DNA of 42,935 bases, taken from the IMG/VR virus record IMGVR_UViG_2529292907_000021; one strand, written 5' to 3'. How positions within the stretch are numbered: position 1 is the first letter of the stretch; every line of letters begins with the position of its first letter. The notes beneath the pieces were generated by a model, which saw only the letters and a list, made by a program, of their open reading frames with translations, did no database searches and was not told the origin of the DNA. This stretch comes from a virus (lineage: Duplodnaviria; Heunggongvirae; Uroviricota; Caudoviricetes). This document shows positions 6,292-21,326 of the stretch, in pieces. The position numbers and the translations under genes were made by a program.

Positions 6292-6866
6292 GCAGACCCC
6301 AGGAAACCGATAAATTTTTGCAGCAGCGAGGTGTTGCTCACTGGAACTGGCGTTTTCGTACCGATGTCTTGGACAGGTGCCGTGCTTAAACCGTCCTGCA
6401 TATTCGCTTTATCAGCCACAGAGACGCTCTGAGTTTGCGTTAATAGCACCTCGCGTAGCGTCAATACGCACGACAGTACGTTCTCGCTGGTGCGGTCTGT
6501 CGTCACCTCAATGGCGCGAATCAGCATGTTACTGTAGGTGCGCTTACCAGTGACCACGTCGAACGGCAACCGGGAAGACTGAAGATCCAGCAACTGCTGG
6601 TAAACCTCCTTTGGGCTCAGGCCAATTCCCAGACCGATTCCCGAGACATCCACAAAATCGAGAATGGATCCGCCACCAGAAAACCCGCACTCCATAGTGA
6701 CTTCGCTGGCGCGTTTATAGGCGTGATCATTCACCGGAGCGCCAATTTCCACCGGATGCTCAGTGATTTCGAGCGCATCAACATGCTTTTCTGACACCAC
6801 AACATCTGGCACTAAGATGCCGATTTTGCGTGACTGCAGCCGGAAGATTGCCGACAAGATATCCAT
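6288..6866 (-). CDS. Phage tail protein immediately downstream of tape measure
   Basis: 192-aa ORF whose start overlaps the tape measure stop; positional assignment. Confidence 0.4.
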   Translation of the reverse strand: MDILSAIFRLQSRKIGILVPDVVVSEKHVDALEITEHPVEIGAPVNDHAYKRASEVTMECGFSGGGSILDFVDVSGIGLGIGLSPKEVYQQLLDLQSSRLPFDVVTGKRTYSNMLIRAIEVTTDRTSENVLSCVLTLREVLLTQTQSVSVADKANMQDGLSTAPVQDIGTKTPVPVSNTSLLQKFIGFLGSA

Positions 6867-8821
6867 CAGTAGACCCTCGGTTGAAGTTGCTGTGTGAGGC
6901 GAGAATTAACACCTGATTGGCGGTCTGCCACTTCCCGGCCGGTAGATGCTGGGTCATTCGCACCGTAAATATTGATGTTGGTTTCCTGGCTTATCTGGGA
7001 GGCCGCCTGGTTTGCCGCGAGGCTCGCCAGTGGGGAATTCCATTGCCCGTAACCTTCCTTGCGTGACATCGCCTGCAGGAGGTTACTGAACTGCTGCGGA
7101 TCGCTCAGATTCAGCTTATCTTTAGTTCCCACGCCCATCATGTTGGCGACAAAGTTGGAGTACGCCTCCGGATCGTTGTTGTCACTAGCCGGGGCGTACT
7201 TGTGGATGATGTCCCAGATTGTCTGTAGCTTCTGGAAGCCGGCAGCAGCACTTTTCCCGGTGAAGTAGAGCCGAATCTGCCGGGCCATTGCCATCCACCC
7301 ATCCATCGGCGTTGCATGAGAAGTAAACCCGGTACCGCCTACCGGGCGCAGATTACCCGGGTTGTTGTTCCGGTCTGCAAGTGTTTTGCCTGATCCGCCG
7401 CCATCTCCTAACAGCCATCCATTGAAAGTCTGCCCGATGCTTCTCGGGTCAAAGCCAGTCCTGTTTTTAATCCATTCGGCAGTGTTATTGGCGCTATCCG
7501 ATACAGCAGGAAGTGCATCCTGCCCCTTCCCCTGAGAAAGCAGGTTTTTACCAATTGCGTAAGCATCTGACCATCGCCCCTCGTTGATGGCGTTTATCAG
7601 GTCGCCAATCATCTTGATCATCTTGCCAAATTCACCAAATTGCTTGGTGAGGTTGTCGATGTCGCCTTTCAGGGTCCAGTTTTTGAGGTTGATATTGAGC
7701 AGCTTGGCTATCTCGACACCGATCGCTTTCACTGAATCTCGCAGTTCCCCCAGTGACTTCAGGGCAGCGTTAATCTCCGGCTCCCATTTATCCCAAGCGA
7801 TAAGACTTTTCCCGCCCTCCTTCCACGTCTGGTAATCCTCAATAAGCGCCAGTATTGCGCCGCCGAGGGCTATCACAAGGCCGATTGGCGACTTGAGAAA
7901 CTCCGAGTTAAGAACCTGCCAGGCGGATACCAACGCAGAAACTAGGGCAATCAGCTGCTGTATATCCGGCGGCAGCTTTTTAAACCACTCAATCAGGCCG
8001 CCGACCGCTTGCGAGACGCGCCACGCCATCTGAGCTATCACATCCGCCGCGAAGAGCACACCCTTCACAACCTTTGTGACGACGTCCTCTATCTTCGGCC
8101 AGTTCTCCAACATCTGCTTACTGAGGTTATTCAGCGTGCCGCTCAGGCCACCAGCCAGGTTTGAGCCGACCTTATCGCGCAGGATCCCCAGCAGCGACAC
8201 AAATTGCCGCATTGAGGTCATGAATTTGTTGGACTGCTGCGCCGCCTTATCCGCGTCAAAACCAGTCTTCTGCATCATCGACTGGTATTCAGCCGTGAAG
8301 CCAGACATCCCACGGCGCATCGACATCAGGGTGTTTTCGTCGATGCCCAGCATCTGCGCGTACTGGTTTGCCCGGTAATACGGCATATTGCTGAGCCGCT
8401 GACCAACACCAGTGAAGATGGACGACATATCGCGCATTTGCCCGGACGCATCACGCGTCTGCACACCCAGACGATTCAGGAAGCCTTCAGCTCCCGGATT
8501 GCTTCGCATAAAACGCGCCAGGCTCTCCAGTGAGTTCTGGGCCGCCTCAGCACTGGATCCGGTTTGGGATGCAGCGTAGCCAAGGGCCTTAATACCGTTT
8601 ACCGAAGCACCGGTCCGCTGTGACGCCCAGTAGAGCTTATCCAGTCCATTCGCGATCGAGGTGGTAAAACCGACAATGGCCAGCGCCGTGGATTCCACTG
8701 CGGCCCCCAGCTTAACAACGTTTGCCGCTACGCCTTTGAGCGTGGCTTCAAACTTCGCCTGGCCCGCGCCGTCGATATCGAACCCCAGAGAGACCAGGTA
8801 ATCACGGATAGTATCAGCCAT
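6866..8821 (-). CDS. Tail tape measure protein
   Basis: 651-aa ORF, largest in the tail block, directly after the frameshifted chaperone pair; alanine/glycine-rich helical regions and a C-terminal Gly-rich segment typical of tape measure proteins. Confidence 0.65.
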   Translation of the reverse strand: MADTIRDYLVSLGFDIDGAGQAKFEATLKGVAANVVKLGAAVESTALAIVGFTTSIANGLDKLYWASQRTGASVNGIKALGYAASQTGSSAEAAQNSLESLARFMRSNPGAEGFLNRLGVQTRDASGQMRDMSSIFTGVGQRLSNMPYYRANQYAQMLGIDENTLMSMRRGMSGFTAEYQSMMQKTGFDADKAAQQSNKFMTSMRQFVSLLGILRDKVGSNLAGGLSGTLNNLSKQMLENWPKIEDVVTKVVKGVLFAADVIAQMAWRVSQAVGGLIEWFKKLPPDIQQLIALVSALVSAWQVLNSEFLKSPIGLVIALGGAILALIEDYQTWKEGGKSLIAWDKWEPEINAALKSLGELRDSVKAIGVEIAKLLNINLKNWTLKGDIDNLTKQFGEFGKMIKMIGDLINAINEGRWSDAYAIGKNLLSQGKGQDALPAVSDSANNTAEWIKNRTGFDPRSIGQTFNGWLLGDGGGSGKTLADRNNNPGNLRPVGGTGFTSHATPMDGWMAMARQIRLYFTGKSAAAGFQKLQTIWDIIHKYAPASDNNDPEAYSNFVANMMGVGTKDKLNLSDPQQFSNLLQAMSRKEGYGQWNSPLASLAANQAASQISQETNINIYGANDPASTGREVADRQSGVNSRLTQQLQPRVY

Positions 8822-9427
8822 TGTTCTGGGCTCTCCATTTGGCTACGCGCGCGTCATTATCGTCACGCATATCAAGGTAATCGTTAAGCAGCGCGATGCG
8901 GCACAGGTCAACTGCACCGCTATCGAGGTCTTTCTGATCGAGGTTGAAGGCGAGCGCCGGGCGAAGGATGTAATCCTCACCGCCCGGCAAGGTGTTGAAG
9001 GTTATTCCACTGGCAGGGTATTCGTCTCGCCGGTAGGAAGTCCTTGCAAAAAATTTCCCAGAGAATCCGCGACCACCCGCGCCACCAACTGCAGCATTAC
9101 AAACAGGTCGATATCGTCGAATGCCATGGTGCCCTGCTGACACACTGGCACCCAGGCGTTTAGGTGTTTTCGTGCAACCACCTGCAGGCAAGGGAACAGG
9201 ATCGCATCCACATCAGCATCGCTTAGGCCGGAAACAGCATCAGCAATCTTCGGCACGATGCTCTCCAGCGCGCCTTCGGTGTCTTTATCACTTAGCTTTA
9301 ACTGGATATTACGGAAGTCCGAGACCAGACCTGCCAGCACCGGCAATAGCTTGCGGGATACTTTCAATTGCTCGAACACGCTCAGCTTAGCGATACGGTA
9401 CTGCTCATTTTTGATGGTGATTTCCAT
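8814..9427 (-). CDS. Tail assembly chaperone pair (G-like product 9002..9427; GT-like extension to 8814 by programmed -1 frameshift)
   Basis: Two overlapping ORFs in frames related by -1 between tube and tape measure genes; slippery heptamer A-AAT-TTT on the coding strand (plus-strand ~9049-9056) near the end of the upstream frame; after the slip the sequence reads KFFARTSY, matching ORF 8814..9191. Confidence 0.55.
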
Positions 9428-9430
9428 GGA

Positions 9431-9871
9431 TTAGTACTCCCCCAGGAATGGGTCGATTTTGATGCAGTCGAAAACCCAGGCCACTGTCCCGCCTTCTTTA
9501 GCATTCTGCCAGTCAGGGTGTTTCTGGAATGCCCCACCGCGCGCTGTCATGATGTCGCCGGAGGCCGTATTGCGAAATACGAATACGTTGTTGCCCCACA
9601 GCGATGAGGACTGGCTCTGTGCGTTATACGCCAGCGACAGTTTTTTGTTCACCGGAGATGTCTTCAGCAGGTTGACGGTTACCGTCCCGGCTTTACCCGC
9701 GTGCAGGGAGTGCATACCTTCGCCATCTGCCCCAATCGTCATGGTGTTTTTGTTTTCCACCATGGCGACGGTGATACCTTCTTCGGAGTTTGCGGAACCT
9801 GCACCAAGATCAATCACCCCGGTTGGGCCAGTCATTGACCCCGTGATATCCAGAAAAGAATAAGTGCTCAT
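9431..9871 (-). CDS. Tail tube protein
   Basis: 146-aa ORF immediately downstream of the sheath gene and upstream of the chaperone pair. Confidence 0.5.
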   Translation of the reverse strand: MSTYSFLDITGSMTGPTGVIDLGAGSANSEEGITVAMVENKNTMTIGADGEGMHSLHAGKAGTVTVNLLKTSPVNKKLSLAYNAQSQSSSLWGNNVFVFRNTASGDIMTARGGAFQKHPDWQNAKEGGTVAWVFDCIKIDPFLGEY

Positions 9872-9882
9872 TCAGGGTCTCC

Positions 9883-11376
9883 TTAGCGCACCACGTCGAT
9901 TAATACGTCAGCGAAGTGGATAGCACCCGTCAGTTTGGTTGCCACCTGGATCACCGGAGCTTTTCGCGCCTCACGGTCTGCCTGAGCTTGCGCATTGAGC
10001 GAGTTAGCGAAGACGTAATAGCCTTTGGTCAGCATATCCCCTGCCGTCAGTTGCCCGACGTCACCACCGTTCCAGATACCCGGAGCCACCAGGCCGTTAT
10101 TCGCTGACTGGTCCATCGATTGCTCAATGTTGGTTACCAGGCGCGTCACACCGGCTTCAGTCTGTGGAATTTTGGTGGTGGAGGTGTAAAGCAGGTTCCA
10201 GAGGTTGTTCTGGACGTAGTTCTGCAGCCAGTCGAGCCCGTGACGTTCGTCGAAGAAGTCGCCGTTAGACATCACCCCTTCCTGGATGATTGCTGTGTCG
10301 TTGGCATAACGCACGAACACGTTGCAGTTTTTGGCCTTCAGCGTATCGGCTTGCTGCGCGGTGATAGTCTCGGCAGTGATGCCCGGCTCCTGCTTGAACT
10401 TCAGGGTAATGGTGGTGTTATTGCCCAGGAAATTGACAGTGAACGCACGCCCGAACGCAGAAGCTGCTGCATAAGGCGTTTTGCTGTACTGGCAGAACAC
10501 GCGCCCGTAACCCGCAGCTTTAAGCTTGCTGGCAATGTCCATGGCGTTCGTACCATCAAGCACCGTGGCATCAGCTGAAGTCACGCCGTACACGCGAGAA
10601 TCACTGGCAGAGCCAATCAGCGCGGCGACATCGAGGTGATCCTGGTCTGTCATCGTCGCATCAGCAATCACCAGGCCATACCAGTCAGCGGAATATCCCA
10701 GCGCCGCCGCGACAGAAGGAACAGCAGAGCCTGCATGTGCCGCTGTACCGTTTACTGCAACCGGATGGCTACCCGCATCGATACCCATCAAAGGAGCCAG
10801 ATCCGTTCCTGCCCCTGCTGCTGATGGAATGCCAACAATGGATGCCGCACCGGTTGTTGGTGAGGTGATCAGGAAGTGCGAGGTCACCGCATTCCACGTC
10901 ACAACCGCGCCTGCCAGTTTGGTGCTGATGGCCGTTGCCACTTCTGCCAGGGTTGTCACCGCCGACAGGTCAACAGCACTGATATTTTTTGCAGCACCAT
11001 CAATGGTGATATTCAGCGCGCCATCGGTGACAGCGCTGAAGTTTTCAATACGCTGCTCAGAGGCATTCAGCTGCGCACCCGTGAGTGTGCCTGCGGTTGC
11101 TGGAATTGGCGTTCTGTCCATTTTGCCAATGTACAAATCCAGTGGCTGGGGCGACTGCTGGAAGTAAAGGTTTGCGGCCTTGTACTCTTCTGACGTGGTG
11201 CCGAAGTCAGCGGCCACACTTTCAATATCGTTATACAGACGCATAACTTCTGGCGCGGTCAAAACACCGGACGTGCCGAGAGCCAGCAAAGCGCCGAAGT
11301 CCCGGCCCTGCGCGGCTCGTAGCGCGAGCGAAACCTGCACGCGTACGACGCGTGAGACTGATAAGCCGTTAGGCAT
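9883..11376 (-). CDS. Tail sheath protein
   Basis: 497-aa ORF preceding the tube gene; size and order are characteristic of contractile-tail sheath proteins. Confidence 0.6.
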
Positions 11377-18045: not shown

Positions 18046-19402
18046 CTTCAATATCCTTGTCGGTGATAGAGCCGCCGATGCCGATGATGTCGGACAGGTT
18101 GCGGAGGTCGTTAAGCGCAGCGTGTTGAGGCATACCAATATCGCGTACGGCGGTCGCCAGGGCGGTGGCCACGTTACTCGCCATCGTCGCCCGGTCGGTG
18201 TCCGACATCTCCCAGAGCTTGTTGAACTCGAAGGTGAAGTCTTCCGGTAGTGGTTGGCCGAACAGTGATCGCCATGTGATATCCAGCAGCCAGCGGATGT
18301 GGCGGCGCAGGCGGCGTTCCTGTAGCGAGTTAACGCGGCTGTAGTAGTTCTCTAGGTCACCGTCACCAGTGCTGAATCCAGATGGCGATTGCCCGAACAG
18401 GCGTACCAGCGGGATACCGGTTGCTCCGGACACCTGCTCAGCAAAGCGCAGGATGACGTCGGCTATCCCCGCGAACGAGTAGCTGTGGGTCTGGAATTCA
18501 TCGTTTTTATCCATCAGGGTCATGCCCTCGATGGTCTGAAATTCACGGATCATGTCCATATGCTTCATCAACCCCTCATGCATGGGGTTGCCAGGGCCGA
18601 GCGCAAGAATTTTGCGCAGCCCCTCAATGCTGTATGTACGAAGGTGAGCTTTGTGGATCAGCTGCGTGGTACCGACGGTCGCCGTATCGAAAGCCTGAAT
18701 GCGCTCGAAGATACGCTCGACGACAGACATACCCCAGCCGTTCTCGGTCTGCGCCTGCTGGAACGGTAACGATTCACCCTCCATGCGGATAATGCGACTG
18801 TGGTGAATCTTCCAGGGTGGAATCCCCTGCTGGTTGGTCACCACCTTGTAATACTTCGGTTTGCCGAACTCCGGGCCATAATCGGTCACCAGATCGTAAT
18901 AGCTCGGGTTGACCTGCCATCGGTCGAGGCACATCACCCCTTTAAACTGACCCTCTTTGATGCGGTCGAGCTTAAGCGGGGTGGACATGTCCTGCCCTTC
19001 CAGCAGCACCACCAGCAACGCGCCGCCATAAAGCCTTGACCACTTCAGGGTATCGTTGAGGCCGTCCCAGATCGCGATATCGTCCCAGAAGGTTTCGAAC
19101 TTACCTTTCTGGCCCGGCTTTAATTTCGAGCTGATGTTAATGCCCTTACGGGTCATGTCATCAGCCATCGCGTCTACGCCAGCACCCACCAGAAACGATG
19201 ACCGGTAGGCGAATTCCAGTTGTACACGGTTGCGCGAGATATAGCCTGGCTGGTAACTCCCGCCGCTCTGGATATTGGCAGTGTAACCACCAAGTTTGGC
19301 AGCGAAATTGTTATACCCGTCAGCAGTCGCAACGGGCTTTTTAGCGCCGTTATGGCGGTTCTTGCGGGACATAATTAACCTCTTTGACCAAGTGCGGCCC
19401 AC
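17888..19402 (-). CDS. Portal protein
   Basis: 504-aa ORF immediately downstream of the terminase large subunit and upstream of the MuF-like gene; acidic C-terminal tail. Confidence 0.6.
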
Positions 19403-20583
19403 GATCCAAGTCCGTCAGCGCTTGTGATGTATCCATCAAGCGAATAGCGCACGGCGTCCCAAAGGTGGTTGTGCTTATCCACGACAACCGGTAGCACTTC
19501 GCCGGTCATGCGGTCTGTTTTATAGGAGTAGAGGCGCGCCTCATCGACCATGTGCTTGCAGCGCTCATGGATAATGATCTCTTCAAACCCTTTCAGGTAT
19601 GTGATTCCGTCCTCAACGCTGCCAGGCCACTTCGTAGCCCCGTCGATAACGAAGCCCTGACGTGACAAGTAGCTGATTGTTTCAGGTCGGCTGCAGTCAC
19701 CGTGGATGGGCCACTTTCTGGACTCCGGGATAGAGTCATAGAACGAAGCCATTTCATCTAGTTCGACGCCAACACCGTAGGCCTCGTACTCGATATAAAG
19801 CCTGGTGCCAATGATGAAGCAGCGAACCAGTGTTGACGGGTCATTAGCAAAACCGAAGTCAGCGCCATAGAACAAACGATCGGCACTTTGCCACAAGTCG
19901 TCAGCGAACGCTTCAACCCGGTACTTGCCGGAGAAAATGACAGCTTCACTGAGCGCTTTCGGCAGGCCAAGCCAGATATGTTCGTAGGCTTCGAAGTCGA
20001 TACGCTTGCAGTACTCCATCTCGTGCCGGAGCACGTCAGGAAAGAAGGCGTTATCAACGTAATTGACGCAGGTGATGATTGCGCCGCCATCAGGGGGATC
20101 AGCGCGGTGCCGTTCCATCATGGCGTAGGTCGGGTCGGTAGCCTCACGCGGGTTGAATGACACCCACACTTCCGATTTATTGGCGCGAACGGTCGGGCCA
20201 AGGATATCCCAACTATCCTGCGATACAGTCTGCGCCTCTTCCACCCAGCATATTTTGATGCCGTGCATCGACTTAATGCTCTGGATGTTGTTACGTAGGC
20301 CTTTGAAGGTAAAGCGCGTGCCGTTGCTGCCCTCTATCTCGTTATTCTTGACCTTGTAGAAGTGCGCTAGGCCAAGCGAGTGGATCTCCGCATCCAGTAG
20401 CGCAAGTACCGAATCGTTGATGGAGTTCTGGAACTCACGAGCGCAGAGGATGATCATCGGCTCGATAGCGCCCAACAATACCAGCGCGCGGGCAATCTCT
20501 ACCGACTTGCCACCACCGCGACCGCCATACGTCCAGCGCCAGCGAACAGAGCCTATCGGTGCGTCGTACAGCGTACACATCAC
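19375..20583 (-). CDS. Terminase large subunit
   Basis: N-terminal Walker A-like motif (YGGRGGGKS) followed by a nuclease-type C-terminal region; 402 aa; precedes the portal gene. Confidence 0.7.
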
Positions 20584-20618: not shown

Positions 20619-21326
20619 TTATTGTTGGGCTGTCTGCTTTCCCTCGCGCAGTTTATCCATGTGCGCCGCCCACGCTTCAGGCGGGCAGTTCGACGGCGTG
20701 ACGATGCAGACCTTTCCGTAGCTCAGCCCAGCCAGATCGACATTCACTTCCGTTTTATTGCTCATGTCGATGCCGGTGAGCTGCGCAGCGTTCTTGATGT
20801 TCGGGGCCACCTGCCCAAATTTCTTTTCTTGCAGCGCTTCTTTCGCCGATTTGTAGGAAAGCTCAGCCAGGTCTTTCGCATCGAATGAGACGAGCAGCGC
20901 GGCATCCTGACGTAGTTCTCTGATGCGCCTGCGCACATCCGGGCGTTTGAACAGGATGGAAGCCTGTGAGTCAGCTCGCGACGGTGAGTAGCCAGCGCAT
21001 ATCGCCGCCTCTTTCTGCGGCATGCCTCGCGCAATGTTCTGCGCAAACTGCTCATGCTGTGGTTTAAGGATGCCCGCGCTTTCCTGCGCAGTCTCGCCGT
21101 CAGTCGGTGAAAAAGCCTCAACCACAACTACGTGTGGCATCTGGCTTTGCGAAGTTTTGCGCACTTCCTTCTGCGCAGTTTTTTGCGCAGCTGGTTTTTT
21201 AATGTACCTGCGCGCAGATGTGTAATTCAGTCCCTGTGCTTCGCACCACTCTTTCGGTGATATACCCGTTTTGGCATGCTCGGCGAGGAACTGGTCTTGC
21301 AGCGCTCCCCAGTCCGGTTTTGCCAT
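20619..21326 (-). CDS. Terminase small subunit (DNA-binding)
   Basis: 235-aa ORF directly upstream of the large subunit; N-terminal HTH-like segment ([22 protein letters not shown]) and basic regions. Confidence 0.55.

Follow-up and report, generated by a model that had tools for sequence, protein, structure and literature searches.

The 42,935-nucleotide (nt) Caudoviricetes record IMGVR_UViG_2529292907_000021, referred to here in its full length as the window, carries a tail assembly chaperone (TAC) gene that is followed by a second, overlapping open reading frame (ORF). Comparison of this locus with its relatives points very strongly to programmed −1 ribosomal frameshifting of the lambda G/GT (P2 E/E+E′) type, which would join the two frames into a long form of the chaperone in a temperate myovirus prophage. 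The window as a whole contains integrase, RecE/RecT, terminase, portal and capsid genes, and is a temperate phage or prophage with a tail of the contractile (myovirus) type. The locus was 96 % identical to a prophage in Escherichia coli GZ2408P, E. coli chromosomes being the best matches, and the chaperone protein of IMG/VR locus L006 was 100 % identical to that of the window. A Megablast search against phage genomes returned partial matches only: the sheath, tube and chaperone genes aligned at approximately 72–74 % identity, and one further match, of 111 nt, reached 82 %.

Reading frames and slippery run of the chaperone gene

The upstream frame (ORF1) begins with the ATG at 9427 and ends with the TAA at 9004–9002 on the minus strand, from which all genes at the locus are read, and encodes 141 amino acids. 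The −1 frame relative to ORF1 (ORF2) is open from 9212 to a TGA at 8816–8814, overlapping ORF1 by 208 nt and continuing for 188 nt past its stop. Codon starts fall on positions of 1 mod 3 in ORF1 and 2 mod 3 in ORF2, which on the minus strand places ORF2 one base 5′. The order of genes on the minus strand is sheath (11376–9883), tube (9871–9431), TAC (9427–9002), the −1 ORF to 8814 and tape measure (8821–6866), and the TGA of the −1 frame overlaps the tape-measure ATG at 8821 (...AATGGCTGA). A first-pass annotation of this DNA had described two overlapping ORFs in −1 relation between the tube and tape measure genes, and both the frames and the gene order, the latter from Pfam and PHROG matches, bear this out. 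The elements of the locus are the following.

9002..9427, minus strand: frame-0 tail assembly chaperone ORF (TAC-N, gpG-like), 141 amino acids, with Pfam and phrog matches; the last 14 residues, after the slip site, are poorly conserved
9047..9059, minus strand: candidate slippery run GGGAAAUUUUUUG, three stacked in-phase heptamers, phase checked against ORF1; the shared Phe codon UUU is at 9052–9050
8814..9053, minus strand: −1 part of the predicted 204-residue product (TAC-NC, gpGT-like), a linker and then a small helical C-terminal domain, as suggested by the open frame in relatives, codon-position entropy, an invariant Arg and an AlphaFold 2 model
8823..8936, minus strand: DUF6889 domain (PF21829) inside the −1 extension; Pfam E 1.5e-12 over residues 41–78 of the 80-residue −1 segment, phrog_4364 E 1.1e-17

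ORF1 matched the Pfam family Phage_TAC_15 (PF21822) over residues 7–129 with an E value of 1.4e-31 and a score of 110.1 bits against a gathering cutoff of 22, and the tail assembly chaperone family phrog_1688 with an E value of 1.4e-52. The match of the −1 extension to DUF6889 reached 47.4 bits against a gathering cutoff of 23.9.

Towards its end ORF1 reads CTG GGA AAT TTT TTG CAA, in which three heptamers are stacked in phase: G GGA AAT (9059–9053), A AAT TTT (9056–9050) and T TTT TTG (9053–9047), the last being of the P2 type. The slippery A AAT TTT that had been proposed near the end of ORF1, at about 9049–9056, does sit there, at 9056–9050, in X XXY YYZ phase and 17 codons before the stop; it is one of the three, and the other two had not been mentioned. 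Within the window TTTTTTG occurs 16 times against 9.2 expected, and a scan of 14,317 codons (ORFs of at least 120 codons, both strands) found 23 in-phase heptamers, or approximately 1.6 per 1000 codons. The slip motif by itself is thus statistically unremarkable; its position and conservation together exceed chance.

Conservation of the −1 frame and variation of the slip site

The locus was compared across 80 loci from viral contigs, 79 from bacterial genomes and 12 more distant phage homologues found by tblastn. The −1 frame was open across the slip site in 79 of the 80 viral loci, the exception being cut off at a contig end, and in 77 of the 79 genome loci, both exceptions having a truncated ORF1. 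Two of these 77 had a shortened −1 frame, one with an extension of 68 nt (L097) and one ending at a stop 16 nt short of that of ORF1 (L152), and are possibly decayed copies. In nearly all loci the −1 extension measured approximately 188 nt, and in most the +1 frame closed after 7–25 nt.

Substitutions 3′ of the ORF1 stop followed the −1 phase, with entropies of 0.64, 0.57 and 1.26 bits at the first, second and third −1 codon positions. Two codons past the T-run, the −1 frame encodes an Arg that was invariant among 108 unique sequences and yet was spelled with six codons (AGG 32, AGA 32, CGC 25, CGA 9, CGT 9, CGG 1), while the overlapping frame-0 residues varied. Over the first eight codons the mean amino-acid entropy was 0.87 in the −1 frame versus 1.64 in frame 0. 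This pattern indicates that purifying selection on the −1 frame begins two codons past this run. At GGA AAT TTT, synonymous sites were nearly frozen among the same 108 relatives, GGA being used in 104 and AAC and TTC never; the third positions of the 20 upstream codons mostly displayed approximately 0.9–1.7 bits (range 0.3–1.8), with GAT and GAC at roughly 50:50. Loci had been collected with peptide patterns (e.g. RVV[AG]DSLGN), which therefore cannot create a synonymous-site signal. No conserved start codon was present in the first 57 alignment columns of the extension, where ATG, GTG or TTG occurred in at most 34 % of sequences per column. The protein database held 584 TAC-N clusters versus 26 DUF6889 fragments of 46–119 amino acids; a natural single-frame TAC-DUF6889 fusion was also sought there, and none was found.

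Among close relatives the run GGGAAATTTTTTG was nearly invariant, and G GGA AAT was lost in relatives with CTC or CTT before GGA. Four relatives, namely Limnobaculum, Rosenbergiella and two Arsenophonus loci, lacked A AAT and carried T TTT TTN only (GGT AGT TTT TTT, GGT GAT TTT TTG and GGT AAT TTT TTT), with a −1 stop triplet abutting the T-run in all four; Providencia phage PSTCR3 was similar, lacking A AAT TTT and keeping T TTT TTT. The abutting stop first suggested T TTT TTG as the sole possible site. The strong form of this reading was dropped, as a stop triplet in the P site after the slip is never decoded and as distant homologues use only X XXT TTT. Acinetobacter phages carried GGA AAT TTT ATT, with A AAT TTT as the sole canonical heptamer containing UUU, and Burkholderia phages Magia and BgManors32 and phage WC36-2 carried GGC CCT TTT ATY, i.e. 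C CCT TTT at the homologous position. In these homologues a canonical heptamer exists only if UUU occupies the A site, whilst G GGT TTT TTC in a Ralstonia homologue makes both registers available. Some relatives carried T7. The element common to the family is therefore a Phe codon UUU preceded by U (9052–9050 in the window), the flanking triplet that completes the heptamer differing by lineage.

For the window, A AAT TTT is a good candidate slip heptamer and may be the main one, and A AAU UUU belongs to the class H_HH.U_UU.Y, which is among the best slip motifs in E. coli (Sharma et al. 2014); the P2-type register may serve instead, or both may contribute. Because the four enterobacterial relatives and PSTCR3 keep only T TTT TTN, the Phe-tRNA may slip in either the A site or the P site in the window. 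A broader and somewhat doubtful proposal, which we put forward tentatively, is that the slip signal may be a ‘moving’ one anchored on a single Phe UUU, with lineages swapping A-site registers (A AAU UUU, C CCU UUU, G GGU UUU) and P-site registers (U UUU UUN). If so, the stack of three heptamers in enterobacteria could reach a useful shift rate without a stimulatory RNA and would give two trans-frame isoforms (NFF and NFL), and, as a corollary, the ‘DUF6889 family protein’ set found in RefSeq and Pfam would consist of fragments of frameshift products and not of free-standing genes. The chaperone family also provides a naturally occurring set of different heptamers built on a single Phe codon, useful for the study of unstimulated bacterial −1 slippage.

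Two further groups of loci were unusual. In Salmonella enterica s1 (L140, CP191473.1) and Bordetella phage vB_BaM-IFTN9 (L168), the −1 extension was still open and conserved despite the sequences GGA AAT ATT TTG and GGA AAT ACT TTC; unless these loci are defective, a shift in them would have to use either G GGA AAU or a tetramer, U UUG or U UUC. Elizabethkingia phage EKP1 (L172, OM284015.1), which has a Bacteroidota host on record, carried the enterobacterial-type run and was approximately 50 % identical to the window protein, and a locus titled Chryseobacterium sp. (L126) was likewise enterobacterial-like. Host mis-assignment or contamination is possible behind both.

Predicted products and alternative explanations

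Under programmed −1 frameshifting, the majority of ribosomes would terminate at the ORF1 stop and produce the 141-residue chaperone (TAC-N), whilst a minority would slip one base 5′ with tRNA-Phe on the UUU at 9052–9050. With this UUU in the A site, a tandem slip on A AAU UUU would give ...LGNFFARTSY; with it in the P site, a tandem slip on U UUU UUG would give ...LGNFLARTSY. A junction peptide ...VVADSLGNFFAR would fit the A AAU UUU register, a single-tRNA slip or slippage of RNA polymerase (RNAP), and ...VVADSLGNFLAR would fit the tandem U UUU UUG register. The first-pass annotation gave KFFARTSY as the reading after the slip, and the −1 frame itself does read GKFFARTSY; the slip comes only once AAU has been read in frame 0, so that the trans-frame peptide would carry Asn in place of Lys.

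Slipped ribosomes would continue in the −1 frame to 8814 and yield a 204-residue protein comprising the chaperone N-domain, a disordered linker and the C-terminal helical DUF6889 domain. The AlphaFold 2 model of this product had a mean predicted local distance difference test (pLDDT) score of 77. Its N-terminal domain was confident, the last helix (residues 108–130) containing the slip position, and was followed by a linker with pLDDT below 50 (residues 128–148) and a three-helix C-terminal domain whose helices had pLDDT values of 65–80. The best matches among the predicted viral structures of BFVD were tail assembly chaperones (E 1.5e-8, TM-score 0.73 normalised to target length); no relative with a solved structure was found in the PDB, either by sequence or by Foldseek (best E 1.2). 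By analogy with lambda gpG/gpGT, the shared N-domain would coat the tape measure and the rarer C-domain would recruit tube subunits so that tail polymerisation starts, and neither chaperone product would remain in the virion.

Three other explanations of the −1 ORF were weighed. The annotation in RefSeq by the Prokaryotic Genome Annotation Pipeline (PGAP) implies a separate small DUF6889 gene of approximately 30–66 amino acids, expressed either from a start codon of its own or by ribosomes that reinitiate once they have terminated at the end of ORF1. In keeping with this, PGAP calls ‘DUF6889 family protein’ coding sequences in E. coli prophages, a TTG lies 15 nt past the ORF1 stop in the window, and DUF6889 fragments do occur in the protein database (the 26 noted above). 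Yet the annotated starts differ among near-identical loci (30, 32, 58 and 66 amino acids), the first 57 columns of the domain alignment hold no conserved start, and the TTG of the window is CTG, CTT or another non-start in nearly all relatives, its column having fewer than 15 % start codons. The frozen synonymous sites of the heptamer also speak against such a gene. Moreover, purifying selection on the −1 frame is already evident immediately past the T-run, where ORF1 has not yet ended, and reinitiation therefore cannot account for the pattern; we consider a separate gene highly improbable. That the −1 ORF is unexpressed, through chance overlap or gene decay, and the heptamer coincidental would agree with the frequency of in-phase heptamers in the window and the commonness of TTTTTTG. 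It conflicts with conservation of the arrangement in approximately 160 loci across many genera, with the Pfam domain in the −1 frame, with a codon-position substitution pattern of −1 phase and with the frozen synonymous sites, and we give it next to no credence, the comparative data having effectively refuted it.

The remaining explanation is slippage by RNAP: one U added in the U6 stretch would let the mRNA read into the −1 frame and give the product ...LGNFFARTSY. Homopolymer runs can provoke such slippage, T7 is present in some relatives, and E. coli genes have fewer U7 and A7 runs than expected in each of the three phases, a deficit for which the authors who observed it discuss slippage as a possible cause. 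Against this, distant homologues with only U4 (A AAT TTT ATT, C CCT TTT ATC) keep an in-phase canonical ribosomal heptamer, and the motif keeps strictly to one phase with respect to frame 0, a constraint that is relevant to ribosomes and not to RNAP. Efficient RNAP slippage, moreover, usually takes homopolymer runs of approximately 8–9 or more. We regard transcriptional slippage as very unlikely, and programmed ribosomal frameshifting remains the preferred explanation.

Several observations nevertheless weigh against programmed frameshifting. Slippage is predicted here and in the homologues from sequence, and we infer the event itself, its efficiency, its exact register and the functions of the proteins from sequence and by analogy. 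The loci compared are phylogenetically related, so that counts of conserved sequences are not counts of independent events, and the U-run on the Phe codon is interrupted in the Salmonella (AAT ATT TTG) and Bordetella IFTN9 (AAT ACT TTC) loci. All three heptamers of the window are intrinsically weak in E. coli reporters without a stimulator (0.07–0.12 %). With no stimulator, the IS911 stimulator and the IS3 stimulator, respectively, −1 shifts were 0.07, 0.36 and 11.4 % for AAAUUUU, 0.12, 0.25 and 0.77 % for UUUUUUG, and 0.07, 0.11 and 1.05 % for GGGAAAU (Sharma et al. 2014, Table S3). Conserved stimulators were not apparent at the locus. RNA structure prediction downstream of the heptamer, as the first-pass annotation had suggested, did return a modest hairpin immediately 3′ of the slippery sequence (−12.6 kcal/mol, z −2.2) and a stronger one approximately 57 nt downstream of the run when the window was folded as a single sequence; RNAalifold on sets of 31 and 20 diverse relatives predicted 0 and 3 pairs, i.e. 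no conserved downstream structure. The hairpin is thus a feature of the window alone, and a downstream stimulatory RNA was rejected as a family feature; a conserved stem-loop or pseudoknot 5–9 nt 3′ of the heptamer, of the dnaX, IS3 or IS911 type, was not seen. Upstream, inspection by eye, the only inspection made of this element, found no Shine-Dalgarno (SD)-like element at a convincing spacing of approximately 10–14 nt 5′. The window has GGGTGG 16 nt upstream of A AAT TTT, in place of which Photorhabdus relatives have AGAGTGATCGGGG, and its synonymous sites vary normally among relatives; GGGTGG is a poorly supported candidate for an SD-like stimulator.

Known systems, annotation and neighbouring genes

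Conserved −1 frameshifting in tail assembly genes of double-stranded DNA phages was described by Xu et al. (2004), as cited in PMC3091744. Four of the features by which they define a G/GT-type pair were found here: a position between tube and tape measure, a −1 overlap without a conserved start, an in-phase heptamer, and conservation with coding constraint in the −1 frame. The definition further calls for two proteins with a common N-terminus, made at a fixed low ratio and both required for tail assembly. The statement of the first-pass annotation that the G/GT strategy recurs here in a contractile-tail context was right, yet not new, the classic example being P2 E/E+E′. According to Christie et al. 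(2002) and Xu et al. (2004), as PMC3091744 cites them, the P2 shift takes place at TTTTTTG and has no downstream structure. Like the window, P2 is a contractile-tailed temperate enterobacterial phage with its chaperone gene between tube (FII) and tape measure (T) in the FETUD tail operon. In both, T TTT TTG stands in phase within a few codons of the stop (GGT TTT TTG in P2, AAT TTT TTG in the window), the −1 product terminates in overlap with the tape-measure ATG, and neither displays a downstream stimulatory structure of the conserved kind. They differ in that P2 E and E′ belong to Phage_TAC_7 (PF10109) and Phage_P2_GpE (PF06528), in contrast to Phage_TAC_15 and DUF6889 in the window, and no homology was detected by Pfam or hhalign, the hhalign probability being 0.4 % for both halves. 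The products are of 141 and 204 amino acids in the window versus 91 and 142 in P2, the slip site lies 16–17 codons before the stop versus 7, and the window run, unlike that of P2, also offers A AAT TTT and G GGA AAT.

Lambda gpG/gpGT shares with the window two products with a common N-terminus, a gene pair just upstream of the tape measure, a −1 slip on X XXY YYZ and, by analogy, the presumed roles of tape-measure coating and tube recruitment. Lambda is a siphovirus with chaperones of different protein families and slips at G GGA AAG, which gave 0.28, 3.8 and 43 % in the E. coli reporters versus 0.07, 0.11 and 1.05 % for G GGA AAU (Sharma et al. 2014). Within the same TAC family, Klebsiella phage Mulock (CPT_Mulock_014/015, MN098327) shares the TTG GGA AAT TTT TTG run, with a −1 extension of 188 nt and a TAC-N 59.7 % identical to that of the window, and Burkholderia phage Magia (CPT_Magia_015/016, MT701587) has the C CCT TTT ATC already described at the homologous position. 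Both GenBank records carry a joined coding sequence named ‘tape measure chaperone frameshift product’, which are annotation calls and not experiments, and the paper announcing the Mulock genome says nothing about frameshifting. In the Pakpunavirus and Vandenendeviridae TAC-N/TAC-NC pair (Pseudomonas phage Adele, PMC12846349), a GTTTTT slip motif is conserved near the TAC-N 3′ end, the −1 frame is uninterrupted across divergent genomes, and annotations routinely mislabel the second ORF as a hypothetical gene. That locus resembles the window in being a myovirus chaperone locus, the recent paper makes the same comparative argument for it, and the tube protein of the window matches the KPP10_Orf10 family. 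Pakpunaviruses are a different, lytic phage family, and the likeness lies in features of the locus. The predicted frameshift of the window is an ordinary, long-known strategy of tailed phages that is already annotated in homologous phages; the prophage would build its contractile tail with the usual pair of short and long chaperones, which is biologically routine.

The consequence is mainly for annotation. In RefSeq E. coli loci L002–L005, PGAP places ‘DUF6889 family protein’ genes of 58, 32, 30 and 66 amino acids, with starts that differ among near-identical prophages, and these calls look like artefacts of an unrecognised frameshift. No paper mentioning DUF6889 was found in the literature. 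We infer from the comparisons above that DUF6889 is the frameshift-encoded C-domain of Phage_TAC_15 chaperones, which is the added value for annotation: RefSeq E. coli genomes miss the long product, and recognising DUF6889 as its C-domain would correct hundreds of entries and provide this DUF with a role. Older records call the same fragments ‘lytic transglycosylase’, a name apparently borrowed from the neighbouring tape measure gene.

The neighbouring tail genes, used above for gene order, were assigned as follows.

9431..9871, minus strand: tail tube gene, upstream neighbour; PF11681 KPP10_Orf10 E 8e-58, homologues annotated as DUF3277 or phage structural protein
9883..11376, minus strand: tail sheath gene; DUF3383 E 1.4e-138, phrog_205 tail sheath E 2.8e-130
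6866..8821, minus strand: tape measure gene, downstream neighbour; phrog_2276 tail length tape measure protein E 2.9e-223

Towards its C-terminus the tape measure protein also matched endolysin and transglycosylase PHROGs, namely phrog_873 (residues 477–623) and phrog_7182 (‘tail injection transglycosylase’), which suggests that a peptidoglycan-degrading domain is integrated in the protein.

A second candidate slip motif was observed elsewhere in the window. At 20637–20643 on the minus strand, seven codons short of the stop codon in the small terminase gene (PF03592, ORF 20619–21326), there is an in-phase G GGA AAG, which is the motif of lambda G/GT and ranks among the most efficient ones in E. 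coli reporters. From there the −1 frame runs open into the large terminase ORF (19375–20583, PF04466), and a slip would fuse the small and large terminase subunits (TerS-TerL) through a linker of approximately 20 residues. This arrangement is probably a coincidence, because only about 20 extra codons need stay open.

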